Source: a virus (lineage: Duplodnaviria; Caudoviricetes). Taken from it: DNA of 64,000 nucleotides. The notes beneath the pieces were generated by a model. The model saw only the letters and a program-made list of their open reading frames with translations. It was not told the origin of the DNA and made no database searches. This document shows positions 7,903 to 62,708 of this stretch, one piece after another. Location of the stretch: the IMG/VR virus record IMGVR_UViG_3300037722_000745, positions 160,001-224,000 of that record; one strand, 5' to 3'. Both the position numbers and the translations under genes were made by a program. Every line of letters begins with the position of its first letter. Position 1 is the first letter of the stretch.

Positions 7903-10900
7903 CTAGAAACGCGGATCCTGGGCCTCTTCCTCCGGCTTACGCTGCAGCTTGAGGGTCTCAATGATCTTCTCGGCAACGTTCGTCTGCTCCACGATCTCTT
8001 GAGCCACCGTGCTGTAGATAGCCCGTAACACCTCGTTGAACAGAGCATCGTTTACAGTGAACAGATCCTTCTCCAGCTTAACCCGCGTGTCATCTGCATC
8101 GATGTTGAACATCTCCAAAATGAGACTGATGTCGATCGAACCCTTGTTGTAGAGGTTGAACAAGGCATCGTACGTGTCCTGAGAGTCCCTAAGAGGAAGT
8201 CGCGTGAACGACAACCTGGGGTACAGCACAACTTCCTCACCCCACGCGTTCTTCTCGACAAAGCCTTTCCGACGGGAGACCGGTTCAAATAGGTAGCGTT
8301 CAACATACTCTTGAACCATCTCACGAAGGAAGAGGTACCGAGTGTTGATCACCTCCAACTTAAGACGATCACCTGAATAGAGAGTCTCCCCAGACAGCAA
8401 ACTCTCCGTGACCCCCAAGCCAGCGTAGAGTTGTTTATCCGTGATCTCATACTCACTCGACAGATCAAGCAAGCGATCTCTGGCTCCCATTTCCTCCCAT
8501 CGAACCTCATAGTTGGTCACGATAGAGTAGTCTGGGTCGACCAAAGCAAGGTCCACTTGCTCCCTCAAGTCCATAACGTCAACTTCGGAGATCCGATCAC
8601 CCCAGATGATCCGTTTAGGCGTCATCGCCCGGGAAGCAATCTGAGTCTGCGCTTGCCGTAGCTTCTCCCGATACATGAGAGTTCGGAGGACCCGGTCCAA
8701 GATGCTCTGACCCAATGGTTCTCCGGCCCCTCGACGTCCAGCCATGTAGTAGCAAAAAGAGCCCTCGTCCGGATCTGTCCCCAGAGGAATGAGCTTCCCC
8801 TGCTCCATGTAATCACGAACTTCCGCAGGTAATTCCCTGACCACCATCTCCGCGAATTCATCCCCCGACCTAGCCTGCTCAATCAAAGCCCGATCCTTAT
8901 CGGAGGGGATCAGCTCGATCCTCATTTTGTCGGTGAACGAGTGTGCCGTCGTCGCTTTGACTCGATCAATGGGTATGATTATCAGGCGGTCCCAGCCTTT
9001 GTACTCTTTCTGGTAGTGCCCGAGTTCCTGGTTTTCGCGGTCCTCACGCTCTACAAGGCCGATCTCCGGTTCCTCTTTGGCTTCACCGTCCTCCGTGACG
9101 ATGTATTTAACTCCAACCTGCTTCTGGTCGTAGCCAAGCTCCGCAGGGACGTCTACTTCGGAATCCTCTGCGAAGATAAAACAATTGTGTGTGCTAACAA
9201 AACCAGCCCTGAAAGTGTGGTCGCGGTCTACTTGGAAGTTGTATACGGTCTCATCGGGATAACCTTCCACACCCCTAATCAACAAGGCCACTTGGCCTGC
9301 CACGCGTTTGTAGGAAGTGTGACGCGATACCCATTTGGATTGAGCTAGAAGCCGATCCGCTTTGGTCGCGTACTTACACAACCGACGGCTTTCATCCTCG
9401 TCGTTCACAGTCAGAACGTACGACGGCCCATTCGATTGCACCCGCTGACCATCGATATACGAATCTGAGGCGGGCGGGGCTACACGTAAAGACGGAACAC
9501 TCCCAACACGTAGAAACAGATCTCTGATGTGGTAGATGAGCCCTTCGGACACCATACTCAGTTGCACCACAGAGTTAGTTGTCGTCCCAACTGACACGCA
9601 ACCGTCTGAGTCGATCAACCCCGCAACTAAATGCAACTGCTTGTCTGCTGGCAACTGCATGACCCAATTGGGGATACGTTTCGGATTGGGGCCTTTCGAC
9701 GTGCACCCGAATTGAGAAGCCCACCACTCCACAAAAGCAGGATTATGAGTCACAGCCAGAGACACACACTCTCGGTCGGTTCTCTCATAAACTCTCTCTG
9801 AGCCAAACCACTGATCTAGGATCCAACGGACACGTTCCCTGTGCGTGTTCGACTCAGACCCAAAACATACGGACCAGACACCGCGGCCCCACGAGGAGCG
9901 ACTTGTATCACGAGTCAAAGTCCCATCCCCCAGCCAATACCCCAGTAGGTAAAGGAAATCAGCGTCGACAGGAAGTTCTCGCGGAGCTTGGAAACGGTAG
10001 TCTCGGTTGATCTCGTAGTACCAACTATTTTCCTCGCCCGACCAGAGAGGCAGCCAAAGTGTGTGGTCTCCGTGTTTAGGACCGGTCGCAACCCTGCGGC
10101 GGAAGGGGTACGGAAGTTCCTGATCAAGGGTCAAGATGACATTGTGGAGCGTGTAAAGAGGGACCCCGAGTTCTTCCGCTATAGACGCTCGGGATCGCCT
10201 AACCGGTTCTTGTAGAGAGCACAACCACGACAACAAACCCAACCGAGCCCTGGCCGCGTTCTCAGATCGGGGTCTGACCTGAGTTCGAGTTACTCTGTAC
10301 CCACCGTCACAAGGTTCCACGAACGCGGGTAATGGATCCAATAGGGACACCTCGGACACGTCGGCTTCACCTACAGGCCACGTAGCTCGAACGAAATCCC
10401 CTTCTCTAAGGTCTCCAGTTTCAATGAACTCAAACCGATCACCTCGAACCACCTCGATGGGATGTTCTCTTGTCAAGTTCAAGCGACCAGGAAGTCGTGC
10501 GATGTCAAGGCTAAGGATATCCTCGCCCGCTCGTTGTTGGACGGCTTCAACCGTTCGCCAGCGCCCTGTGTGTGTTAAAACCTGATCCCCAAGCCCTATC
10601 TCATCCGCCCTCCGCTCTCCGCTGGGAGTAGAGATCAGCGTCTCACCCGTCACGCACCCGCCGTCCAACCAGTAGTGGTGGACCATGGTGACTAAGCGTT
10701 GGAACAGCTTGATCTTGTCACACATGCGAGTGAAAAACCAAAGGATGTAGTTGGCGTAGTCGTGGGTGTCCTTAAAACGTTCCGGATGCGTTTGAGGCTT
10801 TGGAGTCGCCAACCGGACCTTGGACAATGGCAGTTCTGTGTGGAGGTCGATCGACTGACCTACGATCGGATCTGTGTTGTAGAAGTGGCGATAGATCTCC

Positions 10901-11181: not shown

Positions 11182-11654
11182 TCACCTATAGACAGATCCT
11201 GTCCATACAAATCTATCAAGGATTCCATTGGGCTCCGCTGAACTGCCTTGCTCTGAGCCTCTTTTTGAGCCTTCCGCTCACGCCTTTGCCTCATGAGCAT
11301 CTCTCCCTCTTTTTCAGCTTCTATGAGAGAGATGCGCTCCAAAATACGAGACGATCGACTAGCCCGCATTGAGATCTGATCGATCGACCCAGCGAACCTG
11401 GTCATCACGTTAGCGTAGGTTAGATAGATCGCCGTGGTGTCATCTGACGTGGATCTGCGGGTCCTTTGTACTATCCCCGCAGCTAAGAGATGTATCCGCT
11501 TCCCACGGTCGCGGATCTCTTCCTGCAATCGAGAAATCTCCGTGACCGTGCTAGCCACCGGAGTGAGATCGAACGGTCCGTTTTCAGCACTCACAATGTC
11601 GCCTGGATCCCTAGAAAGAACTGATTGACTGTTTGTGGGGTCTGCGTCACCCAC
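11178..11654 (-). CDS. Hypothetical helical protein
   Basis: 158 aa ORF overlapping the portal start. Confidence 0.6.
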   Translation of the reverse strand: MGDADPTNSQSVLSRDPGDIVSAENGPFDLTPVASTVTEISRLQEEIRDRGKRIHLLAAGIVQRTRRSTSDDTTAIYLTYANVMTRFAGSIDQISMRASRSSRILERISLIEAEKEGEMLMRQRRERKAQKEAQSKAVQRSPMESLIDLYGQDLSIGE

Positions 11655-29481: not shown

Positions 29482-30414
29482 TCAGAAACTAACCCCGCCG
29501 TCCTCTACACCACGAATTCGGTCCTTAGCGATCTTTGTCTTGGTGCTTTTGGACATTGCCTTAGCACCCTCCGGACACAAAGAGAGATACCGACAGAGCT
29601 TGCAATGTGAGCCTGTGTTAGCCCAAAAAACTCTCTCCGGATTGACACTAGAATCGGACTCTTTCTGGAGCCTAAGCTCCACCCATTCTTCCTTATCTCG
29701 CTCGATCTCTTTCAGAGTTGAGAGAACCGCTCTCAAGAGATCCTCCAACTCCGACTCTGTGGTCTCAAACCAATCCATACTCTCCGCAGGATCGTACCGC
29801 CAGTACAGGAAGCCAAGACGATCCGGAATGACCCCATACCTGAGCCAATACAGCATGGCGTACCACCGGAGCTGGCGTTCATTTACATACTGGCCTCTCC
29901 ACCTAGACCCCTTACCGTCGACAATGACCAAGTCCTTATGAGGAGGGATCCGGGTCATCACAAAATCAGCCCTCCCGCCGATCTTGAACCCATCCACCAC
30001 AGTATCGAGCACCACCTCAGCCTCAGCATCCAGAGAAATTAGGCTGTGGTGCCTGATGCTTCTGAGCCCACGCGGAATGGTTTCCTTTACCTCAACCTCC
30101 ACCTCATCCACCGATCGATTGCCCGGTTTGAGACCAGACTCCCCCCAATCAAAGACCCCTCCCTTCTCGGACTCTTTGATCATCACCCGTGTGAGAGTCG
30201 AACGAACCATCTGCAGCAGATTGAGCCCTACAACCTTACTGTCCCACATTTGATCTGCGTAGAACCTCTCAAAGAGCTTCCCTACAGTCTCTCCATAGAG
30301 CATGTGGGCTCGATTGTCTGGCTTAGGCGCAGGGGTTTTAGCTATGTACTGATGGTAGTGCTCTCGAGGACACTCATCCCTGACCTTGTACCCTGAGTAG
30401 GAGATGTACATCAC
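29482..30414 (-). CDS. PD-(D/E)XK (RecB/Cas4-like) exonuclease
   Basis: ISYS..CP, GRAD, IVDGK, QL.WY, C-terminal CKLCRYLSLCP (4-Cys cluster). Confidence 0.8.
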   Translation of the reverse strand: MMYISYSGYKVRDECPREHYHQYIAKTPAPKPDNRAHMLYGETVGKLFERFYADQMWDSKVVGLNLLQMVRSTLTRVMIKESEKGGVFDWGESGLKPGNRSVDEVEVEVKETIPRGLRSIRHHSLISLDAEAEVVLDTVVDGFKIGGRADFVMTRIPPHKDLVIVDGKGSRWRGQYVNERQLRWYAMLYWLRYGVIPDRLGFLYWRYDPAESMDWFETTESELEDLLRAVLSTLKEIERDKEEWVELRLQKESDSSVNPERVFWANTGSHCKLCRYLSLCPEGAKAMSKSTKTKIAKDRIRGVEDGGVSF

Positions 30415-31442
30415 GACTCCCGAGCCTTGCTTAGGTACTCCATAGCCAGATCTCGAACGTCAGCAGCGAAATCTAGCTTCTGAATGTTCGTCTCGATCGT
30501 CGACTCAGGGTCTAGCAGCACGTCTTGCTGGAGATGTTCTATGAAAGCGTCGATGCTTCTACTCTCATGTTCCACTCGCTCTTTTCGTTCAAGATCGAAC
30601 ACCTCCTCAGGTGGCGCCACAACCAAGGGCAACACAGTGCAAGTGATCGAGTCCGGCTCAAACTCCAAAAGAGATACCTGAGGGGTTCGCGTGATGTTCT
30701 CGTGGATCAGCGCGCCACGAGACACTGCTCCCTGGTTGACGAAATGCTTACCCCCCACTTGGACAATCCCTTGATCCCGGTGCCAGTGCCCGAACAACCA
30801 CACGTCCGGACCCTCCCGCGTTACCAAGTCGTCGTACTTGAAGACAGGTTCTCCGAAGAAATCCTCAACCTTAGAGGGCGGGTTCTCTGATGCCAACGCG
30901 TGAACAACCGCCACGAGATGATCATCCCCTGGTTGCTTTTGAATGGCGAGCAGCTCGTCTAGCGTACGCCGCGGGTGGTACGGGACCCCAACAACACGAA
31001 CCTGCATACCTCCATCAGTGAAGACGGAGTCCCTCAAGTGTTGGAAGATCCCTGCCGCATACAACACCCCCAAGGGCTGACGCTCCAGACTGTCTAAGTT
31101 GTTGTATGTGATGTCATGGTTCCCCTCGACACAATAGGTGTCACACGGGTATCTCCGATGGATCTCAGCCGTCCGGTAAATCAACCCGTGGCTATTACGA
31201 GATGCAGCCTTCACGTGGAAGTAGTCCCCACCGTCAAGCACGGCAGCGGCCCTATACCGTGCCGCCATCTGACCGATTTGCTCCAAGCTAGACCAAATCT
31301 CAGCAGGGTAATCGCCTTTCCAGGACGCCGGACCTCGATCCGCCACATGGGTGTCCGTTCGAAAGATGAAAGCAACCCTAGACATGTTCATGTGCCTCGT
31401 AGAGAGCCCTGTTACACGTGGGGCATACCCCAAGGACCCCAA
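30411..31442 (-). CDS. sbcD: SbcD/Mre11 metallophosphoesterase nuclease
   Basis: DTH, DGGDYFH, GNHD, FGHWH; probable start near 31391. Confidence 0.85.
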   Translation of the reverse strand: MGSLGYAPRVTGLSTRHMNMSRVAFIFRTDTHVADRGPASWKGDYPAEIWSSLEQIGQMAARYRAAAVLDGGDYFHVKAASRNSHGLIYRTAEIHRRYPCDTYCVEGNHDITYNNLDSLERQPLGVLYAAGIFQHLRDSVFTDGGMQVRVVGVPYHPRRTLDELLAIQKQPGDDHLVAVVHALASENPPSKVEDFFGEPVFKYDDLVTREGPDVWLFGHWHRDQGIVQVGGKHFVNQGAVSRGALIHENITRTPQVSLLEFEPDSITCTVLPLVVAPPEEVFDLERKERVEHESRSIDAFIEHLQQDVLLDPESTIETNIQKLDFAADVRDLAMEYLSKARES

Positions 31443-32592
31443 ACTCCCTCAAAGCCTCGTCTGCATCCCGTTCAGCCGCAGACAATTCACCCTCCAATCG
31501 ATTCACAATTTGAAGCATTCTCAGTAAGCACTGCTCCCAAGCCGAAAGACGGCCGTACTTACTTTCAGCTGCTCCCAACGGATCCAACGCTGGAGCTTCA
31601 ACGTCCTGAGACTTCTGCATCCGTTCAAAAAATGCCTTCAGGAATCTCAGTCTCATGGACCATGCCGCCAAGGTCCGGTACTTCTCTTCCAACAGCGTAG
31701 AGCTAGCTGGAGAAGGAACGGCTATCTCCTCCACCTTAGACAGGGCTTCCACACCTCGGGTTTTCCCTGCCAACGCCTCAGCAAAAGACCTAAGAGACAG
31801 GTATGTCTCCCCACTGCTCTGTAGAGCGGAGATCTCTGGGACCTCTACACTCTCAACCGAAGACAGGTCTTTCACACACTTAGCGACGCTCAACAGAATC
31901 CCTAAGTACCGATCCAGACGTTCTACTTCTACCTCTGCTTCATAAGCTTGGCGCCCCAAATCTTCAACGCTACCAACCCTGGACACAACCTCGTCAAGTC
32001 CTTCATACGTCTCCAATGAGATCCTAAGATCCCGAACGTCCTGCTCTCTGACTTTCCGTAGAGAAGCGGTGCTCTTTCGGTCCTTCTCGACCAAACGCAT
32101 GGCGGTGTTGATTTGGTCCAGCTTAGCCACATCGGACAGGACGTCCGCTACCACAGTACCCGATTGATCCAAGATGAAAATTGGATGGAACTGGTCAGAT
32201 ACTTGAAGGACCTCCTTGTTGGTGCCCAACTTAACCGGACCGAAGGCGCTCTCTAGGAACTCCGGAGTACCTCTACCGGCCACTGTGTACTCGGAGCCAT
32301 TGAACACGTACCGATTGACAGAGTCCCCCTTCTCCCAAAGCAGATCAAAATCCTTGGCCTGGATGTGCACCGAACAGAAGCACTGACACGACTTGTTACC
32401 CTTCAACGCTCGTGGGCAATCCTGCTTGTGTCTAACACAGGGATCCGCAGGAGGACCTGTCAACGCCGCCTTGATGGCCCTAACCACCGCACTCTTACCG
32501 ATATTGGACTTCCCAACGACGGTAGAAAAACCATCGATCTCCACGACCTGATGGTCGATGGACTGGAAGTCTTTGATCTCTACACGGACCAT
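31378..32592 (-). CDS. SbcC/Rad50-like ABC ATPase, N-terminal half ending at the Zn hook
   Basis: IKDFQSI, Walker A GKSNIGKS, Q-loop, coiled coil, terminal CPTC. Confidence 0.82.
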   Translation of the reverse strand: MVRVEIKDFQSIDHQVVEIDGFSTVVGKSNIGKSAVVRAIKAALTGPPADPCVRHKQDCPRALKGNKSCQCFCSVHIQAKDFDLLWEKGDSVNRYVFNGSEYTVAGRGTPEFLESAFGPVKLGTNKEVLQVSDQFHPIFILDQSGTVVADVLSDVAKLDQINTAMRLVEKDRKSTASLRKVREQDVRDLRISLETYEGLDEVVSRVGSVEDLGRQAYEAEVEVERLDRYLGILLSVAKCVKDLSSVESVEVPEISALQSSGETYLSLRSFAEALAGKTRGVEALSKVEEIAVPSPASSTLLEEKYRTLAAWSMRLRFLKAFFERMQKSQDVEAPALDPLGAAESKYGRLSAWEQCLLRMLQIVNRLEGELSAAERDADEALREFGVLGVCPTCNRALYEAHEHV

Positions 32593-33887
32593 CAGGCTTC
32601 CGAAGCGGCCTCACCACTGGAAGAAGCCTCATCTTCTCCCTCACTGAGGGCCTCCGTCACTTCATCTTCGAGTCCTTCTAGGTCATCATCCACACTGTCG
32701 CCCTCGAGATCATATCCCTCCAACAACTCATCTTCCTCTTCCAACTCAATGGGCCCATCCACTGCGGAGGCGTTCACGGCTTGGACCAACTTGTCCCTCA
32801 GAGCCGTGTAGATCTTGTGGTTCTCCACTAGAAAGGCACGAAATTTTTCCTTGCCTTGAAAGCGGTGTTCCCCGATAGAGTAATAAGCCCCCTCTTTCTT
32901 GATCAACTTCTGGGCCACCCCTGTTTCAATCAGAGAGAAATGGTCGTCTATACCAGCTCCGTAGCGGATGAACACCTGCGCCGAATGCCCTTGCTTGGCA
33001 TCGATCTTAGACTTGACGACCTTGACGTCCGTCACATTCCCGTAAGGGAAGCGGCGCTTCCTGCCCGTCATCGGATCCTTGCGCTCGATGAACTCGGACT
33101 TGATGCGCTGCATCCGCAGCCGCAGGTAGGCGTAGAACTTCAGCGCCTTGCCGCCACTCGTGGTTTCGTTGTCACGCCCCGAACCTCCGATAAGCGCTCG
33201 AGTCTGGTTGACGAACACTAAGGTCGTACCTGGATGCGTAGGGTCTGGCTTCTCCTTGTTGTTGGGGTCCTTCGGGAACTTGAGAAGCCACATGGCGAAC
33301 TTGGGCAGCGCTCTCGAAAATTGACGAGCGACACCGCCAATAGCCGCCTCATCATCGAAGCCCTTGTCCAGCTCCTTTTTGGGCACCATAGCCGCAACTG
33401 AGTCGACTCCTATGATGTCAAAGCCAGCTGCCACGCCAACGAACATCATCTTGAAACCCTCCTCCATAGAGTCAGGTTGGTAGACAAGGAGCTTGTCCTC
33501 CTCGTAAGAAAGACCCAACGCCTTAGCGTAGGAATGGTCCAACGCGTGTTCATAGTCGATGAACATCGCTGCACCGCCGGCCTTCTGAGCTTGCACCATG
33601 GCTGAGATCAGCATGGTTGTCTTACCACTCGACTCGGGCCCATAGACTTCGATGATGCGACGACGAGGGAAACCTGGACAGATAGGGTTCTTACCGTCTC
33701 TCGACAAACTACCCCCGATCAGCATGTCCGTAGAAAACGATCCCGTCGACACAAAGGGAATCGTTGTAGCAGTAGGCTCCAGAGGCTTCTGTTTTGTGGA
33801 TTTCTGGATCGCAGATCGTGCCTTGGCGACCATTGCAGCTCGCGCTTCAGCTACGGGATTAACCGGTTCCTTCTTACGTGGTGGCAT
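32592..33887 (-). CDS. recA: RecA recombinase
   Basis: GPESSGKTT, FIDYEHALD, DSVAAMVP, FVNQTR, TSGGKALKFYA; acidic tail. Confidence 0.95.
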   Translation of the reverse strand: MPPRKKEPVNPVAEARAAMVAKARSAIQKSTKQKPLEPTATTIPFVSTGSFSTDMLIGGSLSRDGKNPICPGFPRRRIIEVYGPESSGKTTMLISAMVQAQKAGGAAMFIDYEHALDHSYAKALGLSYEEDKLLVYQPDSMEEGFKMMFVGVAAGFDIIGVDSVAAMVPKKELDKGFDDEAAIGGVARQFSRALPKFAMWLLKFPKDPNNKEKPDPTHPGTTLVFVNQTRALIGGSGRDNETTSGGKALKFYAYLRLRMQRIKSEFIERKDPMTGRKRRFPYGNVTDVKVVKSKIDAKQGHSAQVFIRYGAGIDDHFSLIETGVAQKLIKKEGAYYSIGEHRFQGKEKFRAFLVENHKIYTALRDKLVQAVNASAVDGPIELEEEDELLEGYDLEGDSVDDDLEGLEDEVTEALSEGEDEASSSGEAASEA

Positions 33888-34545
33888 GTCTCAACGCCTC
33901 ATGTCTGGGGAGAATTGAAAAGCGGAAGAACCGCTGGTTTTCCTTGAAAATAGCTCCTCTGTAGACGGTCTGACCCGACCTCTTGCCTTTCGTGAAGGTG
34001 TGGATCTTGGCGAAAGCTCGAAGCTCCGCAGGAGTCAAATCTGCTTCAGTCAGCTCCCCACGAAGGAACATCCAAAAACGAGCGGTGAACTTAGCGACGT
34101 GGTACCCATCAGCCTCGTCAGAACTCCACTTAGCGATCCCGGTCTCCGCCTTGGCTGCGGAAATCATGTCCGACTTGAACATCTTGCCTTTGCGGAGCTT
34201 GGGATCCTCTTTGACCATCATCTTGACCGTGCTCGGATCGAAGTACACCACGTCCTTGCGGCGGCTCCAGAGAGCTTCGTTGACCACCAGAAACAAGGCG
34301 TAGAGTCCTTCACTGAACAGTTCTCCATACGGCGGGGATTCGACCCCCACAGCCTCGATGAGCGGGTAGTGGTCCAACAACTCCACGAGCCACTGTCGGA
34401 GCAAAACGTAGCGCTCCACCCAAATCGTCTTGGAGGTCGTGGACCACCGCCCTCGAGCAACAACACGAGCGTGGTCCACGACCGACGAATTGTGAATCAG
34501 CCAGCCAAAACCTGTGAGAGAAGGATCCAGTCCTAGCGTGAACAC
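33874..34545 (-). CDS. ruvC: RuvC-like Holliday junction resolvase
   Basis: (M)FTLGLDPSLTGFG, GVESP, SDEADG. Probable GTG start at 34545; the ORF-track extension to 34572 lies inside a CRISPR repeat. Confidence 0.8.
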   Translation of the reverse strand: MFTLGLDPSLTGFGWLIHNSSVVDHARVVARGRWSTTSKTIWVERYVLLRQWLVELLDHYPLIEAVGVESPPYGELFSEGLYALFLVVNEALWSRRKDVVYFDPSTVKMMVKEDPKLRKGKMFKSDMISAAKAETGIAKWSSDEADGYHVAKFTARFWMFLRGELTEADLTPAELRAFAKIHTFTKGKRSGQTVYRGAIFKENQRFFRFSILPRHEALRHATT

Positions 34546-34553
34546 AGTTGAGC

Positions 34554-34659
34554 GTCTCGCCGCAGCGAGCAATCAGGATCGATTCCCAGAGGGCGTCAGC
34601 GAGACGCAACTCGGGTCTTCTGGGTCTCGCCTCAGCGAGCAATCAGGATCGGTTGCCAA
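34554..34659 (-). CRISPR. Orphan Cas12j-type mini-array (repeat-34 nt spacer-repeat)
   Basis: 36-bp repeats at 34624-34659 (32/36 identical) and 34554-34589 (34/36 identical) to the main array repeat; hairpin CTCGC/GCGAG intact in both. Confidence 0.93.
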
Positions 34660-34670
34660 CACTGTTTGGC

Positions 34671-35559
34671 TCACACCTGATCCAGCAGGTCGTGCAAGTT
34701 GTCCGCCGAGACGTCCTCTGCCGCAGATCCGCCAAGACCCAATTTGGCCTTGAGTTGGTCGGTGGTCACCTCCCGGAACGGAATCAGCTTGTCGTACAGG
34801 TTGATAGCCTGTCGGAGGACGGCTTGCCTGAGCTGGTCGTTCTTGAGCCAGACCGCAGGCCCGGTAAAACTCACGCTGATGTTCTGGTATTGAGGCTCTT
34901 TGCACTCCAGCTTGATGTCTTGAGAAGCCAGAGCCATGCCGTTTTCACGAAGACTGTCGTTGACCTTCCAGATGTCTTCGTAAATCCGGTTGCTGAAGCG
35001 CCACGGAAGTATGTCGAGCTTGCCCTTTTTGATCTGATCAGCGAGGGCTTCCTTGTTGATGATCTTGCCCTCGCTATCCGTCGGATAGATCAGCAACAAC
35101 GTGGTGAAGTAGGTCTTCACCTCAGGCAGCCTCTTCCAGACAGCGTCGGCCTCCGCCCCGTCTTTCCCCAACCGAGACAGCACAAACCCTAGCCCCTCCT
35201 GGTAGTGCGCCTTCATGACCTTGAAATGCGCCGTGCCGATATCGAGCTTCTCAATGCCAGTCAGCTCGTCAACGCTCTTGTCCAGGCTCTCCGCCTGCTT
35301 CTTAAGAGCGGTCGAGGCCACCTGCTTGATCTCCTCTCGGCTCAGCTTCTGATCTTTCTTCTTCGCTTCTTTGACAGCTTGGCGAACGGTATTCGCGTCT
35401 ACCGTGTGGAAATAGACAAACGCGCACCGAATCGTCTGGCCTTTTTTCGTCAGCTTAAGCCAATCGTTCGACTGTCCTCCGACGTTCTTCTCGTCGGGGG
35501 CAAGAGAAACTTCACCCTCAAAGTCATACTCTTCTGGAATATCGATATTATCACTCATC
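34671..35559 (-). CDS. Putative single-stranded DNA-binding protein (T4 gp32-like)
   Basis: WLKL..G..R, aromatic-rich OB-like core, acidic C-terminal tail ending DLLDQV; upstream of ruvC/recA. Probable start ATG 35559. Confidence 0.55.
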
Positions 35560-35632
35560 TTATGCCTCAATGTTTGGTCGCCCCAACCACTGAGTCCGTT
35601 AGACAAGGAGGTTGAGATACGACGTATCAGGT

Positions 35633-35740
35633 GACAGGCTCAGGCCGACATTGCCAGGTGGTTGTCCCACTCTTAATGGAGGTGGGCTTCCGTTGCGACT
35701 CGTTGAGGAAAGCCAAAGGGCGGGTCTCCCCAAGCCTGTC
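35633..35740 (-). ncRNA. Candidate structured RNA / ssb leader
   Basis: 5' GACAGGCT pairs with 3' AGCCTGTC, closing several internal hairpins; begins at the position predicted for +1 of the upstream GGTGTAG motif. Confidence 0.4.
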
Positions 35741-35749
35741 AAAGACCCG

Positions 35750-35757
35750 CTACACCA
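35750..35757 (-). promoter_or_regulatory. GGTGTAG motif (putative phage promoter) upstream of the ssb operon
   Basis: TGGTGTAG in intergenic DNA; overlapped by the inverted repeat GCGGGTCT/AGACCCGC (35720-35750). Confidence 0.5.
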
Positions 35758-35774
35758 GCGCAACAAGAAAATAG

Positions 35775-36623
35775 TCAGATGTCGTCCAATATCGAGAGAT
35801 CTAGATCCTCCAATATGGCGGCGTTTGACTCACCCACTACCCCTTGTGGTGGAACACCCTCAAACTCGTCCGTAGACTCTAGAAAACGTCGAACATCAGC
35901 TTCGGTCAACTTCGCCCTTTCTCTCTCGGTACCAGAAGATTTAGGGGTCTCTTTCTCGTCCGCACCTTTCTCGTCCCCAACATCAGATTCCTCAGATCCT
36001 GGTTGTTCAGACGTAGTCTCAACAGGTTCGGGCAGCTCATCATCCAACATCGACGCAAGGTCATCCGCGTTGAAATCATCGTCCAAACCCAAACCACCAC
36101 CGGGATCTCTGGGAGAACGCTGGCTCCTAGGAACGCGCTCATCACCGTAGAAAGCACCGGTTGAGATTTCAGTCTGCATGAGACGCCGCTGGTCCTTAAT
36201 CGAGGTCATCGTAGAATGCAGCTCTCGATTTCTATAGGTCACAGCTTTGAGTACAGCGTCGAGCATGTGCATCTGATCTTTGAGTTCGTTGATCCGAAGT
36301 CTCTGATCACGTAGAAAGAAACCCGCAGTTGACTTGCGATCCTCGATATTGGAAAGCGCTCGAACACGGTCGTCATTCGCCAACAGGTTGTCGTACTCAA
36401 GGGCGTATACCGCCTCCAACCGCCGCAGCTCCCCGCCAACCTTCATCTTGTCGCGATTCAATTCGGAAAGGACGAAACCGACCTTGTTGAGATAGTTCCG
36501 ACAGGTTGCAATGATGTCCTGGAAGTAGTTGGGACCCAGGCTGCCAGGGTCATTCGCTAGCTCCAGCGTGTAGGTGTCCATCTCAGCGAAGATGGCGTCC
36601 GCCCGTTCCTCGGTCAGGTCCAT
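35775..36623 (-). CDS. Coiled-coil protein, possibly UvsY-like recombination mediator
   Basis: Helical N-terminal part, acidic tail, position next to ssb/recA. Confidence 0.4.
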   Translation of the reverse strand: MDLTEERADAIFAEMDTYTLELANDPGSLGPNYFQDIIATCRNYLNKVGFVLSELNRDKMKVGGELRRLEAVYALEYDNLLANDDRVRALSNIEDRKSTAGFFLRDQRLRINELKDQMHMLDAVLKAVTYRNRELHSTMTSIKDQRRLMQTEISTGAFYGDERVPRSQRSPRDPGGGLGLDDDFNADDLASMLDDELPEPVETTSEQPGSEESDVGDEKGADEKETPKSSGTERERAKLTEADVRRFLESTDEFEGVPPQGVVGESNAAILEDLDLSILDDI

Positions 36624-53597: not shown

Positions 53598-54827
53598 ATG
53601 ACGCCTCCCGGGTTTTCTAATCCTTTCCGTCCTGGGGCAGGTCACCAGCCTCCTTACCTGGCTGGTCGGTCGCGGGAAACTAATGAATTCAAAATCTTAC
53701 TGGATCAGGACGTGATTCTGAACAGTCTGGTCCTGACGGGGCTTCGGGGGACCGGAAAGACAGTCCTGCTAGATACCTTCAAGCCTATCGCGATCTCCTC
53801 AAAGTGGGTGTGGGTGGGAGCGGACCTCTCTGAGTCGACTAGCATCAGTGAAGAACGGATTGTGAAGAGGCTTCTAGCTGACCTCGCGATCGTCACCGCT
53901 AGCATCCAGATCAGCGAACACCAGCGCAAGCAGATCGGCTTCGGTGCTGGCACGACAACGGTCCCAATCTGTCTCGACTATTCCGCGCTTGATGCGGTGT
54001 ACAAGGCCACTCCAGGATTGCCTGCCGATAAGCTGAAAGCCGTACTGCAGCTGGCGTGGTCAGCTCTCAAGCCGCTAGGACACCGAGGGATCGTCTTCGC
54101 CTACGATGAGGCGCAGAACCTCTCAGACCATGCTGCGAAAGAGGAGTTTCCACTGTCGCTCCTCCTCGACGTATTCCAGTCGCTTCAGAAGCATCAGCTC
54201 CCATTCCTGCTTACCCTGGTTGGGCTACCAACCTTGTTTCCGAAGTTGGTGGAGGCGCGCACTTTCGCCGAGCGCATGTTCCGGGTTGTCTTTCTCGACA
54301 GGCTTGGGCGCCAGGATTGTAGGGACGCCATCCTGAAACCAGTCCAAGACGCTCAATGCCCCATCCAACTCGACGACCCGTCCGCCGAACACATCATAGA
54401 CATTTCCGGCTGCTACCCGTACTTCATCCAGTTCATCTGCCGAGAAGTCTATGACGCGTTCCTGCAAGGGCAGACACGGGTACCTGTTGACGAGATAACG
54501 CGAAAGCTCGACAGCGACTTCTTCGCCGGTAGGTGGTCGCGCGTCACCGACAGACAACGCGAGCTTCTCAAAGTAGTAGCCTCTCTGGAAAGCTCCGACG
54601 GCGAATTCATGGTGCAGGAGATCGCAGAGAAATCGAAAGAGCTGACTAAACCATTCAGTCCAAGCCACATCAACCAGATGCTAGTCACTCTCGCGAACAA
54701 CGGCATGATCAACAAGAACAGGCACGGGAAGTACTCCTTCGCAGTGCCTCTTCTTGGCCGCTTCATTCTGCGGCAGGCAACCGCTGACAGAGAGGAGGAC
54801 CCTGGAGGGCAACAGCTGCTCTTCTAG
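53598..54827 (+). CDS. AAA+/STAND-like ATPase with C-terminal winged helix
   Basis: NPFRPGAG..PPYLAGR, GLRGTGKT, Walker B YDEAQ, GYP-like CYPYFIQ, wHTH tail. Confidence 0.82.
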   Translation: MTPPGFSNPFRPGAGHQPPYLAGRSRETNEFKILLDQDVILNSLVLTGLRGTGKTVLLDTFKPIAISSKWVWVGADLSESTSISEERIVKRLLADLAIVTASIQISEHQRKQIGFGAGTTTVPICLDYSALDAVYKATPGLPADKLKAVLQLAWSALKPLGHRGIVFAYDEAQNLSDHAAKEEFPLSLLLDVFQSLQKHQLPFLLTLVGLPTLFPKLVEARTFAERMFRVVFLDRLGRQDCRDAILKPVQDAQCPIQLDDPSAEHIIDISGCYPYFIQFICREVYDAFLQGQTRVPVDEITRKLDSDFFAGRWSRVTDRQRELLKVVASLESSDGEFMVQEIAEKSKELTKPFSPSHINQMLVTLANNGMINKNRHGKYSFAVPLLGRFILRQATADREEDPGGQQLLF

Positions 54828-55971: not shown

Positions 55972-57375
55972 TCAATCCGCGCCCTTGAGGTTCGAGACCG
56001 GGTAAAGCCGGTGTTCAACTCTCGCAATCCCCTCCGCCTCTAGAACGGCGAGAACCGCGTCGAGATCCTTGTAGACGTGCCCGCACTCATCAAGCGGCGT
56101 CTTCTTGTGATTGCCCACGATCCCCTCGATCTGGACGCCGCCGAAGGTTCGCTTGACGCTCGCCATCTCGTTGTCGATTCGAGCCTGCTTGTGCCCCAGC
56201 CGGCGCTTCGCTTCTGAGCGGCCTAAGATCCGACCCGAACCGTGGTTCACCGAGCAGGCGGACTTGTAGGCCCCATCTCCCGGGAACAGGATCGCAGCAC
56301 CTTCGTACATCGAGCCCGGAATGAGGCACGGGTGACCCGTAGTCTCCCACGCCGTCCCTACCAGGTCAGGATGCCCTGCCGGAAAGGCTCGGGTTGCTCC
56401 CTTCCGATGCACGAAGCCCCGCTTGTGGGTCCCGTCGGGCAGCACAAGGGTCTCTTCCTGCACCAGGTTGTGGCTGATCTCGTAGTAGACTTCGAGGTCA
56501 GCGTTGAACACTTCCTGCGTCGCCTCTTGAACCCCCACCACGATCTGATGACGGTTCGCGACCGCGAAGTTGGCCGCCGAGTTGTGGTAAGCCCAGTACT
56601 CTCGACCAAGAGGCTCATCTATTCGAAGCCAGGAATCCTCTCGACGGTTCTTCGGTAACCCCCGGAGAGCGGCCCCTTCGTAGAAGAAGTGGTTCGCCGT
56701 CTGCCAACCGTAGCCCCGCGACCCACAGTGGACCATCACCCAAACCGACCCGTCATCTCGATCGACTTGCATCTCGATGAAGTGGTTGCCGCCACCCACG
56801 CTACCGAGCTGGTCGGACACCTTCGAGTAGGCTTTCTCGATGTGACTTAGATCCAACGTCTCCGGGATCGGGATGTACCGCCGCTCACAGAGCGCCTCGT
56901 TGATCCCCAAAGACTTGGCCCCATATCGAAGCACCTCGTCGACCTGACGAGAGCCCAGCCGCCTCATGAGGGCAGGCCGCTCGGACCCTACGCCGGTCGC
57001 CACCCGCTTCTCGACTTCCTCGACCCACTGCTGACGCTTGTGCCGACTCCGAACCGCCTTGGCTCCAAGGTTCACTTTCATGCAAAGAGCCCCGCACGAG
57101 ATGTCGTAGCCCGAGCCGCCCTGGATGATCGTGTCTTCAGTCACGATGACCGAGCCGACCGGCACGCCGTATCCCCTGTGGCAATCCGGCATCAGGTACG
57201 CCCCAATGACCCCCTCGTAGGACGCCCCGTTCGCGATCTGCTGCCAGACCGACTCTTCCGACGCCGCATAAAGGTCATCCGACAAAAAGGCATGAGCCTC
57301 CACCCGCATCTGCCCAACGCGGGGCAGCACGTAGTGATTGTCGCTGACCTTCTGAGCCTGGTACTTGAAAGACAT
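55972..57375 (-). CDS. rtcB: RNA-splicing ligase RtcB
   Basis: MPDCH.GYG.PVG, GYDISCG, GGGNHFIE, HCGSRG, SHN, HRKGAT, IPGSM, HGSGR, YKD. Confidence 0.95.
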   Translation of the reverse strand: MSFKYQAQKVSDNHYVLPRVGQMRVEAHAFLSDDLYAASEESVWQQIANGASYEGVIGAYLMPDCHRGYGVPVGSVIVTEDTIIQGGSGYDISCGALCMKVNLGAKAVRSRHKRQQWVEEVEKRVATGVGSERPALMRRLGSRQVDEVLRYGAKSLGINEALCERRYIPIPETLDLSHIEKAYSKVSDQLGSVGGGNHFIEMQVDRDDGSVWVMVHCGSRGYGWQTANHFFYEGAALRGLPKNRREDSWLRIDEPLGREYWAYHNSAANFAVANRHQIVVGVQEATQEVFNADLEVYYEISHNLVQEETLVLPDGTHKRGFVHRKGATRAFPAGHPDLVGTAWETTGHPCLIPGSMYEGAAILFPGDGAYKSACSVNHGSGRILGRSEAKRRLGHKQARIDNEMASVKRTFGGVQIEGIVGNHKKTPLDECGHVYKDLDAVLAVLEAEGIARVEHRLYPVSNLKGAD

Positions 57376-57644: not shown

Positions 57645-57704
57645 ACCGTCTCAGATTGACAGGGTCGGGTGGCCGTCTTCGAGCCACACTGGTTACGTTA
57701 CCGC

Positions 57705-58179
57705 GTCTCGCCGCAGCGAGCAATCAGGATCGGTCCCCAGCGGCTGATTCCTGCCGGAGGCAGTCACGCCTACTCCGCGTCTCGCCGCAGCGAGCAATCA
57801 GGATCGGTCCCCAGCTGATCATCACGATTCAGCTGCCGGCATCCGCTTCAAGTCTCGCCGCAGCGAGCAATCAGGATCGGTCCCCAGGACGTCCTCGAGA
57901 TCAACGGCAACGAGTACGACGCGAGGTCTCGCCGCAGCGAGCAATCAGGATCGGTCCCCAGCTACGGCGTCCGACGTGATGAGCGTGGCCGCGAGAACGT
58001 CTCGCCGCAGCGAGCAATCAGGATCGGTCCCCAGCAGCGTGCGAGCTGCGGATCGGTGGCTGCAGCCTTGTGTCTCGCCGCAGCGAGCAATCAGGATCGG
58101 TCCCCAGCTGCAAAAACTGGACTTCGCGTTATATGCCGTCCTCGTCTCGCCGCAGCGAGCAATCAGGATCGGTCCCCAG
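57705..58179 (-). CRISPR. Cas12j CRISPR array: 7 identical 36-bp repeats, 6 spacers (36-38 bp)
   Basis: Repeat CTGGGGACCGATCCTGATTGCTCGCTGCGGCGAGAC at + starts 57705, 57779, 57852, 57926, 57999, 58072, 58144; the ATTG-hairpin-AC 3' end is typical of CasPhi repeats. Confidence 0.98.
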
Positions 58180-58307: not shown

Positions 58308-60464
58308 TCACTCAGCCGCGAGAGACTCCAGGGGGGTAGACGCCACTGAGGCTCTCGCGGCTTTCCGGAGGGATACACCAGTGATGGCTACCATCGCGAT
58401 ATTATAGGCAGCCACATCGATGTCCGCGTTCCCACGGTACCCGCAACAAACACATATGAAAGCTTCACGATTGACTCGGTCTCGATTGGCCTTGTCACAG
58501 TGCCCGCACTCGGGGCACGTCCGTGATGTATTATACGGATCCACTTTGATCACCCGATAGCCTCGGTGCACAGCCAAGTCGCAGAACGCTCCGAAGAGAG
58601 CGTCCATGAGCCACCGCCCTTCCTGTTTGGCTGCGAAGAAACCACCCCACCCTGACTTACGGCTCCCCTTCCCGCCTCTACGGAAGCTGTGATGAAGGTC
58701 CTCGACCGCTACGATGACCTTTCCGCACTGAGCCCGCTTCTCGGCTGTCCTAATGACGTAGTTGACGCAGTGTCGCGACAACTCCTTCTTGCGGATGGAT
58801 AGCTGGTGGTACTTCGAGCTGTTCCTTTCAGCCTCCCATTTGGCTTCGTTCAGTGCCTTGCGGGTCTCGGATGTCAGTTGAGGCCGAAAATGCTGAGCCC
58901 AGTTCACGTCCCATCTCTTGCGAATCTCGGTCTTCCGCTTTTTCCCTTTACCCTTGAAGAAGGGGAACATGTAGAGCGTGTCGTCCACACCACGTTCCTT
59001 CGCCAAGTCAGATAGAATAGAGCTTCGACTGTTCACCTTGTCCCAGGGTACTTCATCCACCGATAGCCCGAGATGGCCACACACCTGCATCTTGGCTTGC
59101 TCTGGTCCGAAGGTATCCAACGCCAACACCTCCGCTTGTTGTTCGGCGGTCAGAGAGCGTACGGCTGCTAACCGCAAATTCTCTTGGTGCTTGTCATACG
59201 CCTTACGAAACCGGAAGAAGTCCTCTACAGTCTGCTCCGGTAACGTAAAAGCCTGCAACCGTTCTACGCACTTCCCTGGACGAATCCGTAGCGCATTCGC
59301 AGCGATCAAGTTGTTGACGCCTAGATCGACACCTACGAGGCTAAACGTCTCCGTGGTGTCATCTAGCATCTTCGACACATAGGATCCCTTCACAACCTTG
59401 GCCTTGACGACCGGCACGACCCCTTGCTTATAGATCAACGTGGCGGTGTAACGTACCGGCTTGCCCGGCTTCTTCACTACACTCAACGTGGGGTCATTCG
59501 TCACCAGATTCAGAAGACTCTCAATCGTCACCGGCACCGATCGGTCTAACAATTTGCGGTACTGTGTGTTGCGGAGAAGCCCTCGGAGATCGAGAAGTGC
59601 CCAGTCATCAGCTACCCTAACGACCGCCAACAACATGTTGTCGTCGATCGCCCCACCACGTGAGCGTGCCCAAGAAGCCCGTTTCCGACGGTGCTTCTTA
59701 ACGGAAAGATTTTCTCGATCCCATGGGGGTACATACCCCGGTTGACCTTCAGGTATCTCTAGCCGATCTACACCACAAGCGGCGATGGGTGTTGACGGAT
59801 CTCGGCTATAACCCGTCACCCCAGGAATGGACCCAGGCACATAGGGCTTCAACTTCATATGCTGGTACCCAAACACGCTACAGTTGATCCCCGGGCGGTG
59901 CCGCAGATGACCTGTCTCATCGAGGGCCGTTTCAGGTTCGTCGAGTGTTAGAAGAGGTAGGCCACGTTCTGCCCGATGCTCGTTCCGCTGTTCAATCTTT
60001 GCTACCTTTTTGCTGTTGCGATTCTCAACCTTCTTGAGAACCCCCTCGTAGGTGGCCCGAGCGTTTTGGAAAATCAGGTTGAGACCTTGGACATTGAAGT
60101 ACCCGTCCGTGTCCACCCGCGTAGCCTTAAGCCAGGCCCTAAGCCCTGCTTCAGACTTCCCAGGATCCGTAGCCTTGAACTCCTCGTAACTCTGAGCATA
60201 GACGTACTTCTGGATCACCACCGACGCTTTGTAGATCGGCCACTCCTCCAAAGGCCGACTCATCGCCACGATGTTACACTTCACCGGAGGTTTGAAATTA
60301 GGCTGTGTTGTGCCCCCCTTTCCTTCAAGAAAGGCCACAGCAGCGCCTTCGCCTTTCGACTTGAGGATCCTACCAGCCTGCCTCGAGTCATGTTTTTTGA
60401 ACCGCAGCCCAGGGAAGGACTTCTTACAGAGGGCGACGAGTGGGGTTTCCTTTTTGTCTGGCAC
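58308..60464 (-). CDS. cas12j: Cas12j (CasPhi) type V effector, 718 aa
   Basis: CasPhi-like N-terminus (FKPPVKCNIV..SRPLEEWP, VQGLNLIF.NA..YEGVL, DRLEIPEGQPGYVP), RuvC VGVDLG, VAVEDL, TSRTCPECG..CVCCG..ADIDVAA; adjacent array; no cas1/cas2. Confidence 0.95.
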   Translation of the reverse strand: MPDKKETPLVALCKKSFPGLRFKKHDSRQAGRILKSKGEGAAVAFLEGKGGTTQPNFKPPVKCNIVAMSRPLEEWPIYKASVVIQKYVYAQSYEEFKATDPGKSEAGLRAWLKATRVDTDGYFNVQGLNLIFQNARATYEGVLKKVENRNSKKVAKIEQRNEHRAERGLPLLTLDEPETALDETGHLRHRPGINCSVFGYQHMKLKPYVPGSIPGVTGYSRDPSTPIAACGVDRLEIPEGQPGYVPPWDRENLSVKKHRRKRASWARSRGGAIDDNMLLAVVRVADDWALLDLRGLLRNTQYRKLLDRSVPVTIESLLNLVTNDPTLSVVKKPGKPVRYTATLIYKQGVVPVVKAKVVKGSYVSKMLDDTTETFSLVGVDLGVNNLIAANALRIRPGKCVERLQAFTLPEQTVEDFFRFRKAYDKHQENLRLAAVRSLTAEQQAEVLALDTFGPEQAKMQVCGHLGLSVDEVPWDKVNSRSSILSDLAKERGVDDTLYMFPFFKGKGKKRKTEIRKRWDVNWAQHFRPQLTSETRKALNEAKWEAERNSSKYHQLSIRKKELSRHCVNYVIRTAEKRAQCGKVIVAVEDLHHSFRRGGKGSRKSGWGGFFAAKQEGRWLMDALFGAFCDLAVHRGYRVIKVDPYNTSRTCPECGHCDKANRDRVNREAFICVCCGYRGNADIDVAAYNIAMVAITGVSLRKAARASVASTPLESLAAE

Positions 60465-61294: not shown

Positions 61295-61720
61295 GTGGCA
61301 GTGTCGCGAGAAGAAAGCCGGCGGCGTTATAACCAATCCCCAAAAGGGCGAGCTAACGCCAGCCGCCACGCAAAGAGCCCCAAGGCAAAAGCGAGGCGCC
61401 AGAAATGGATGCGGACGCCCAAGGGCAAGGCAGTTCAACGTCAGTACAAGGAACGTCGCCGGGCCTGGATGCAGGCAGAAAAACTTCGCCGTGGTTGTAT
61501 TGACTGCGGCTACAACAAGCATCCCGCAGCACTCGACTTCGATCACATTGTCGGGGAGAAAAAATTCGCCCTATCGAAGGTGTCGCGAAGCCTAGAGGCC
61601 CTCAAAGATGAGATTGCCAAGTGTGTAGTTCGCTGCTCGAACTGCCACCGCATCCGAACTTTCGAGATCCGGCAGTCCGCAGTGGACAAACGCACCCTAC
61701 GCATGGAGAAGGACGCAGCT
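61295..61720 (+). CDS. HNH endonuclease, in frame with the downstream vWA gene
   Basis: CIDCG..ALDFDH...CVVRCSNCHRIRT; no stop before vWA ATG 61721. Confidence 0.75.
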
Positions 61721-62708
61721 ATGTCAAGTACCGCCTACACACTCAGCAGAGATCTATTTCTAATCAAGCAGGTTCTGAGCCAGAACACCCCACCAACCGC
61801 TGCCGTCGAAACGGCAATCAATCATCTCGTTGTGATTGATTGCAGCGGCAGCATGTCCTGGGATCTGCCGAAGATCCGCGAGCAACTCAAACGCAAAGTT
61901 CCGAAACTACTGAAGGAGCAGGACACCATCTCGATCATCTGGTTCAGCGGCCGGCGGCAATTCGGGACGCTGTTGGAAGCCGAGCCCGTCGCAACGCTGG
62001 TCGACCTCCAGGATGTTGAGAGAGCCATCGATCGCTGGCTCAAGCCCGTGGGGCTCACCGGATTCAGGGAACCCCTCGAAGAGGCCGCCAAGGTCGTCGA
62101 GCGCGTGTCCAAGGCTCGCAAGGGTTCGGTCGCCTCTTTGTTCTTCATGTCCGACGGCTGTGACAACCAGTGGGACCGGGCCGAGATCCTCAAGGCCACC
62201 GAGACAGCCGCTGGAGGGTTCGCTTCCACAACTTTCGTCGAGTACGGCTACTACGCCGACCGGCCCCTGCTCACCGCCATGGCCGAGAAGTCGGGCCACG
62301 GACTTCTACATGGGCAAGGAACTGAAGGTCAACCTCAAAGGGTTGTCTTCGCTGCCGAGCCTCAACGATGTCCGCAAGCAACGCGACAAGGGTAAGTTCA
62401 ACGCAGGCGGCGAACTCATGAAGCCCGTGTTGGAATTGGTCGAGAGCTTCCTCGACAGCGATGCTTACAAGCAGGCCGCGGACAAGGACGCCGTCCTGAA
62501 GGCGTGGCTCGAAGGGCAGACCAAAGCCGCCAAAGCCAAGACCCGCGAGCACCTCTACAAGATGGCCGAAGTCTCGTTCGCCCTCATCGTCGGTCAGACG
62601 TGGTTCAGCGAGTTTAACTCTCTCGATGAGAACTCGCTTACCATCACGGTCGATGGTAAGGACATCCCATGCAAGGCCGAGATGCGTGAGATCGAGGTCA
62701 AGATCTAG
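61721..62708 (+). pseudogene. vWA-domain gene with internal deletion/frameshift
   Basis: MIDAS DCSGSMS, SDG; frame switches near 62293-62297 to a coherent C-terminus (TDFYMGKEL...WFSEFNSLDE...EIEVKI). Confidence 0.6.

Follow-up and report, generated by a model that had tools for sequence, protein, structure and literature searches.

Cas12j (CasPhi) is the sole Cas protein of its system, with a single active site that serves both DNA cutting and crRNA processing. Repeat-spacer-repeat units in the genomes of phages and archaeal viruses are known as viral mini-arrays (for a review, see PMC11656645); the described cases copy host repeats, use host Cas proteins and carry spacers that match related viruses. 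Racr and other solitary repeat units mimic host repeats and poison host Cas complexes (PMC10651486, in the text of which Cas12j does not appear). crRNA-like regulators of the CreA type (for phage, bioRxiv 10.1101/2024.10.29.618823) act in trans, through partial spacer complementarity to promoters near cas or toxin genes. In yeast, expression fell when CasPhi-2 repeats were engineered into the UTR of an mRNA (PMC9943656), so the principle of repeat-mediated mRNA control works. In type VI systems, a repeat with a non-spacer flank gives an extraneous crRNA-like product, which is blocked there by a leader-repeat hairpin (PMC13187072). In the searchable literature we found no paper that joins Cas12j with mini-arrays or solitary repeats, and no natural use of such an arrangement by a phage on its own operon, in agreement with an earlier sequence-only reading of this DNA, which knew of no such description for CasPhi.

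The window that we analysed is a 64,000-nt stretch comprising bases 160001-224000 of a 323-kb IMG/VR virus record, itself estimated to be 68% complete. Positions below are those of the window unless they are called genome positions. The Cas12j-related features are as follows.

34624-34659, minus strand: mini-array repeat A, 36 nt, 32/36 identity, with mismatches at repeat positions 1, 5 and 6 and at loop position 28
34590-34623, minus strand: mini-array spacer, 34 nt, with a 5-bp internal hairpin and no target found
34554-34589, minus strand: mini-array repeat B, 36 nt, 34/36 identity, with mismatches at positions 6 and 8
57705-58179, minus strand: main Cas12j array, seven identical 36-nt repeats and six spacers of 36-38 nt
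58308-60464, minus strand: cas12j (CasPhi), 718 aa, matching CasPhi-2 over its full length (E 2e-159)

The mini-array thus consists of repeat A (36 nt), the spacer (34 nt) and repeat B (36 nt), running from 34659 to 34554 on the minus strand, and its mismatches are counted against the 36-nt repeat of the seven-copy, cas12j-adjacent array at 57705-58179. Both copies are 36 nt long, have a 3′ hairpin ending in GAC and match the repeat of the cas12j array, as expected of type V-J repeats, and at least two repeats surround a unique segment of spacer length, as in viral mini-arrays. We conclude that it is a true type V-J repeat-spacer-repeat unit, a second copy of the phage's own array. The sequence-only reading had proposed just this (two 36-bp repeats with 4 and 2 mismatches around a 34-nt spacer, in crRNA-sense orientation on the operon strand, some 23 kb from cas12j), and its coordinates are identical to ours: the unit is co-oriented with the main array and with its neighbouring genes, and lies 23.6 kb from cas12j, that is, outside the cas locus. 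A 27-nt core of the repeat has 9 matches in the window and none in 100 shuffles. Contigs from three other metagenome runs span the mini-array and both flanks with zero differences, and it is therefore no assembly artefact; because it is identical in every sample, however, these contigs offer no independent evolutionary replicate of the mini-array itself, which counts against our main reading.

The main array lies directly downstream of cas12j. In an alignment with ten homologues, the RuvC residues D380, E588 and D681 and the four zinc-ribbon cysteines of Cas12j fall in invariant columns, and judged by its sequence the gene is intact. As the mini-array repeat belongs to the array of this gene, its cognate effector is encoded in the same genome. 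In contigs of the other runs the main array is fragmented, and one contig of run X3 omits 439 nt at 57703-58143, leaving a single main-array repeat, which reflects either an assembly collapse or a deletion variant. Immediately 3′ of the array is an RtcB RNA ligase gene (55972-57375, minus strand, E 7e-87). Elsewhere in the genome, a second Cas12f1-like TNB domain (genome 292895-293092, minus strand, 87.6 bits) lies within a 314-aa open frame, which could be a TnpB or what remains of a second effector, one that would serve the long-loop repeat family introduced below.

The mini-array sits in an operon with the following features.

35665-35700, minus strand: solitary repeat of the long-loop family, 36 nt, 34/36 to the repeat of its array, between the stop of a 282-aa ORF and the 295-aa gene
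34671-35558, minus strand: upstream 295-aa gene, start ATG at 35558, 54-66% identity in relatives, acidic C-terminal tail
33874-34545, minus strand: ruvC-like Holliday junction resolvase (phrog_159, E 4e-13)
32592-33887, minus strand: recA/UvsX-like recombinase, downstream of ruvC
31378-32592, minus strand: SbcC-like gene, after recA/UvsX
30411-31442, minus strand: SbcD-like gene, after the SbcC-like gene

A NUDIX gene and a RecD2-type helicase lie further upstream. The sequence-only reading had called the 295-aa gene ssb, a label that our searches do not support: Pfam, PHROGs and PDB sequence searches returned no match, its AlphaFold model was poor (pLDDT 46, unusable), and a language-model Atlas hint of Pam3_Gp34/DUF5895 (0.91) is a lead only. 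The reading's account of the gap itself was correct. An alignment with eight RuvC relatives places the ruvC start at the GTG at 34545, which has no clear Shine-Dalgarno sequence, and the 125-nt gap between this codon and the upstream stop at 34671 is filled by the mini-array, with 11 nt before copy A and 8-9 nt from the handle of copy B to the GTG. In the interval 34300-36000 we found no sigma-70-like promoter site, and no minus-strand terminator-like site around the mini-array, so that co-transcription with the operon is the simplest assumption and the mini-array is probably transcribed within the operon mRNA. With the long-loop repeat in the next gap, the same operon holds repeat units of two families.

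Compared with the systems described above, the unit shares with viral mini-arrays a layout of bona fide repeats enclosing one or two spacers, on a virus genome and at a distance from any cas gene. It differs in that its repeats are those of the phage's own Cas12j, in its position between two genes of the same orientation, and in that searches for a promoter of its own and for a target gave neither. Like Racr, the phage has repeat-derived hairpins scattered through its genome, and in one other Cas12j phage (G012, below) such a hairpin stands directly behind a promoter-like site; Racr, however, is a single repeat with its own promoter that mimics a host system, whereas here two repeats and a spacer, with no promoter-like site in 34300-36000, resemble the phage's own system. 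The likeness to CreA-type RNAs lies in degenerate repeats around a spacer-like segment and a proposed regulatory role. Here, though, the proposed action would be in cis on the carrying mRNA; the genome has no partial target, and no promoter-complementary spacer site, and the unit is 23.6 kb from cas12j. Engineered cleavage of repeats in UTRs, including that by CasPhi-2 (PMC9943656), uses the same mechanism as proposed here, but is synthetic and was carried out in yeast. As in the type VI case (PMC13187072), repeat B plus the ruvC leader would give a crRNA-like product; there the products are extraneous, whereas here a gene begins in the flank, and further junctions show the same arrangement.

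Mature Cas12j crRNAs retain 26 of the 36 repeat nucleotides (bioRxiv 10.1101/2025.09.16.676532), and it is the 10 discarded nucleotides that have drifted in the mini-array: five of its six substitutions are there, at positions 1, 5, 6, 6 and 8, and the sixth is in the 4-nt loop. None falls in the 44 constrained positions, for which the chance expectation is (28/72)^6 = 0.0035, and the retained 26 nt of each copy (ATTG flank, 5-bp hairpin, final AC) are intact apart from one loop base. The earlier observation that mismatches are confined to positions 1-8 and the hairpin loop, with stem and 3′ part intact, therefore stands. This pattern fits selection for Cas12j recognition and suggests, at the level of sequence, that the unit is selectively maintained.

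Our leading explanation, which we hold tentatively and as somewhat short of probable, is that the mini-array serves as a Cas12j binding and cutting site in the operon mRNA that would release one crRNA and uncouple or damp ruvC. Cas12j would bind both handles in the operon transcript, with predicted cuts about 10 nt into each repeat (in repeat A near 34650/34649), releasing one crRNA with a 26-nt handle and a 34-nt guide. Cutting would sever the message of the upstream gene from that of ruvC, recA and sbcCD. Cas12j would then stay on the new 5′ end, with the ruvC GTG within the guide segment behind the handle, and with the GTG inside this bound segment, we infer that ruvC translation or message stability would be lowered.

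The same structural element recurs across the 323-kb genome. Defining the 20-nt handle as ATTG or TTTG, a 5-bp stem, a 4-nt loop, the stem again and then AC, we found at least nine solitary copies, at genome positions 11450, 87498, 126178, 224976, 228545, 235636, 242052, 243439 and 245626; a reversed-pattern control gave no match in the genome. Those at 11450, 224976, 228545, 235636, 242052, 243439 and 245626 are on the minus strand and that at 87498 on the plus strand. The handles at 87498 and 126178 share a change on both sides of the stem (CTCAC/GTGAG), which is compensatory. Among 18 distinct handle sequences, every stem position pairs, with compensatory changes in three of the five pairs (0 of 500 shuffles), and T8, C11, C13, G19, G22, G24, A25 and C26 are invariant in 20 handle sequences from five Cas12j phage genomes and the relative G001. 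Two handles lie in the leaders of a 1430-aa ORF (126178) and of a VWA-domain gene (235636). Five are within a tRNA cluster and in tRNA orientation, and a sixth (224976) lies at the cluster edge in a divergent gap; the handle at 242052 ends 23 nt before tRNA-Ser, which is the length of a crRNA-like guide. The handles at 11450, which abuts the RNase HII stop codon, and 87498 are antisense to their neighbours, and mRNA processing is no explanation for these two or for the divergent-gap handle at 224976. The proximity of handles to start codons could also be incidental, phage intergenic gaps being short. The features of these regions that lie outside the window or extend beyond it are listed here.

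Genome 224455-247829, minus strand: tRNA cluster of 43 tRNA genes and a tmRNA gene, with interspersed solitary repeats of both hairpin families
Genome 243755-244007, within the tRNA cluster and outside the window: array of the long-loop family, four repeats
Genome 1-260, 61340-61890, 10711-10752, 223770 and 286000-286160: sites of a third repeat family

Several further observations were made in passing. Directly behind the handle at 228545 is a tRNA-like minihelix (genome 228505-228544, minus strand), with a 7-bp acceptor-like stem around a T-arm; it has no D arm or anticodon arm and is not called by ARAGORN. Right behind the handle at 224976, two tandem copies of a 15-nt direct repeat (genome 224946-224975, minus strand) lie in the divergent gap, beside the RBS of a plus-strand gene. 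The third repeat family ends in ATTGAAAC, like type I/III repeats, and comprises two plus-strand arrays and solitary copies, one of them just upstream of RNase HII; a search with this type-I-like repeat, tried for host identification, gave no exact match in GTDB genomes.

The handle distribution bears on one claim of the sequence-only reading, namely that the mini-array couples the nuclease to double-strand break repair: the same handle adjoins RNase HII, the VWA-domain gene, the 1430-aa ORF and several tRNAs, which leaves a dedicated link to repair unsupported. The mini-array is best read, from its sequence context, as a putative Cas12j-dependent version of an operon punctuation element that is not specific to break repair.

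A single-protein search of IMG/VR gave no close relatives of this Cas12j, and a profile search found four distant Cas12j phage records, each with a different repeat. We searched for each phage's handle in all four genomes (G010, G011, G012 and G013), and two of them (G010 and G012) carry solitary copies of the handle of their own array. In the 529-kb G010, an exact solitary copy of its own handle is found at 139431 (plus strand) in a tRNA cluster, where it follows the tRNA orientation and is flanked by tRNA-Gln and tRNA-Asn, and a one-mismatch copy comes after a stop codon and ahead of the RBS of the following gene. In G012, a solitary handle at 53603 stands behind a promoter-like TTGACT-17-TATCCA, and at 82333-82553 an array of five handle-only repeats of about 22 nt stands behind TTGACT-17-TACAAT. 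The handles of G011 and G013 are confined to their arrays, and the cross-genome search gave no clear match, its one hit, inside a G013 ORF, being probably due to chance. Handles just before a start codon or RBS occur in G001, in G010 and at genome 126178 of the present phage.

In nine related phage records (RuvC 68-78% identical) there is no cas12j in the sequence examined, and handle counts are near chance except in G001 and G002, which are one phage with about 68% nucleotide identity to ours. In G001, an exact handle lies directly before an RBS and ATG, at a junction that has no handle in the present genome, and in G002, the closest relative, a CTCGC/GCGAG stem lies 4 nt before the ruvC ATG. 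Despite this exact handle and handle-type hairpin, no cas12j was found in the roughly 53% of that phage's sequence available, which counts against our main reading. A scan of metagenomes for the handle gave 24 single matches, about the chance number for the estimated size of the collection, the exception being a contig that is G001. All of the relatives examined have a hairpin of 5-17 bp right behind the stop codon of the upstream gene, of 13-17 bp in 4/5 (z -4.3 to -6.1) and weakest in L012 (z -2.2), and two have an additional small hairpin just before the ruvC start. The mini-array sits where the relatives carry this hairpin, which, in those with no cas12j in the DNA examined, is unrelated to the Cas12j repeat. 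As to the earlier suggestion of looking for a repeat at the same junction in related phages, the repeat unit is absent there and a hairpin takes its position; in G002 the stem shared with the handle belongs to a further hairpin, just before the ruvC ATG.

The strongest competing explanation is that this is an ordinary orphan mini-array, which does no more than add a crRNA directed at a host target or a competing phage, in a gap that merely tolerates the insertion and has it transcribed. Its canonical repeat-spacer-repeat layout and a spacer of 34 nt, close to the normal 36-38 nt, are as this explanation predicts, and selection on the retained 26 nt would be equally expected. The spacer itself yielded no target. 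Its first 20 nt have no site with up to four mismatches elsewhere in the phage's own 323-kb record, except for two four-mismatch hits at chance level, and we found no match in INPHARED or in 570 kb of relatives and no exact 20-mer match in IMG/VR or GTDB genomes, where exact 20-mers only were compared. The sequence-only reading's alternative of a dedicated regulatory guide thus finds no partial target in the phage's own genome, and the spacer match that it had asked for did not appear in any of these collections. As evidence against an ordinary mini-array this is weak, since the main-array spacers tested likewise have no matches. (In a separate comparison, the spacer was considered as a decayed third repeat, but the global alignment score was not significant, P about 0.08.) An ordinary mini-array also leaves unexplained the spacerless solitary handles and the handle-type hairpin that G002 has at this junction, and we regard this explanation as rather unlikely.

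According to a second explanation, which we consider less likely again, the handles are hard-wired to turn adjacent phage sequence into native guides, here the 5′ end of ruvC behind repeat B. With the handle end (GAC) in place of a PAM, the resident genome would be spared, and Cas12j would cut the DNA of close relatives that co-infect the cell and have a T-rich PAM but no handle at the site. Such guides would be strand-independent, so that the antisense units fit too, and several candidate guides have suggestive boundaries: at 11450 the guide begins exactly at the rnhB stop codon, at 87498 it enters the 3′ end of the neighbouring gene, and at 228545 it begins at the first base of the tRNA-like acceptor stem. 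That the search of IMG/VR gave no Cas12j close to this one is also in its favour, as is that no adaptation genes caught our attention in passing. Against it, some guides, such as that at 242052, lie in non-conserved leader sequence, and the available relatives (about 68% nucleotide identity) are too diverged to be targets: comparison of the native-guide sequences with them gave nothing beyond chance matches of 11-14 nt. The wider target searches for the spacer and the native guides, in the phage's own genome, INPHARED, IMG/VR (exact 20-mers) and GTDB genomes, were likewise empty.

The remaining two explanations are disfavoured. The unit would be a non-functional relic if a fragment of the main array had been moved by recombination, either between repeats or with a pre-existing handle-like hairpin, and were now decaying. 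Its six substitutions relative to the main-array repeat and its absence in relatives with 68-78% RuvC identity would be expected of a relic, but the decay is non-random, with 0/44 constrained positions changed (P about 0.004), and the 20-nt handle persists at nine further sites, in two cases with stem changes that compensate each other, making a relic improbable. Least probable is a Cas-independent RNA switch in which base pairing of the spacer to the ruvC leader and the 3′ half of repeat B would control ruvC translation: this pairing can reach 15 bp with a 2-nt bulge and the whole junction folds better than shuffles (z -3.8), but about 4% of random genomic 34-mers and 2/6 main-array spacers equal its duplex energy of -30 kcal/mol, and arrays of this kind have inflated z-scores in any case because their repeats are palindromic.

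Returning to the proposed Cas12j site in the operon mRNA, the at least 10 scattered handle copies, the mini-array included, suggest an additional role for the nuclease, in binding or cutting transcripts of the phage itself. A wider reading, possible but on balance doubtful, is that in huge phages Cas12j has taken on a further task, acting on RNA of the phage itself, with handles planted at operon junctions and in tRNA clusters so that transcripts would be punctuated or repressed, or adjacent native sequence would be made into spacer-free guides against relatives; of these planted handles, the ruvC mini-array is the fullest example. If true, a CRISPR effector would here be used in nature to control gene expression on behalf of the element that encodes it, which would make the system a natural counterpart of engineered repeat-in-UTR and tRNA-guide designs. 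It could also explain how systems with no visible adaptation genes come to have useful guides.
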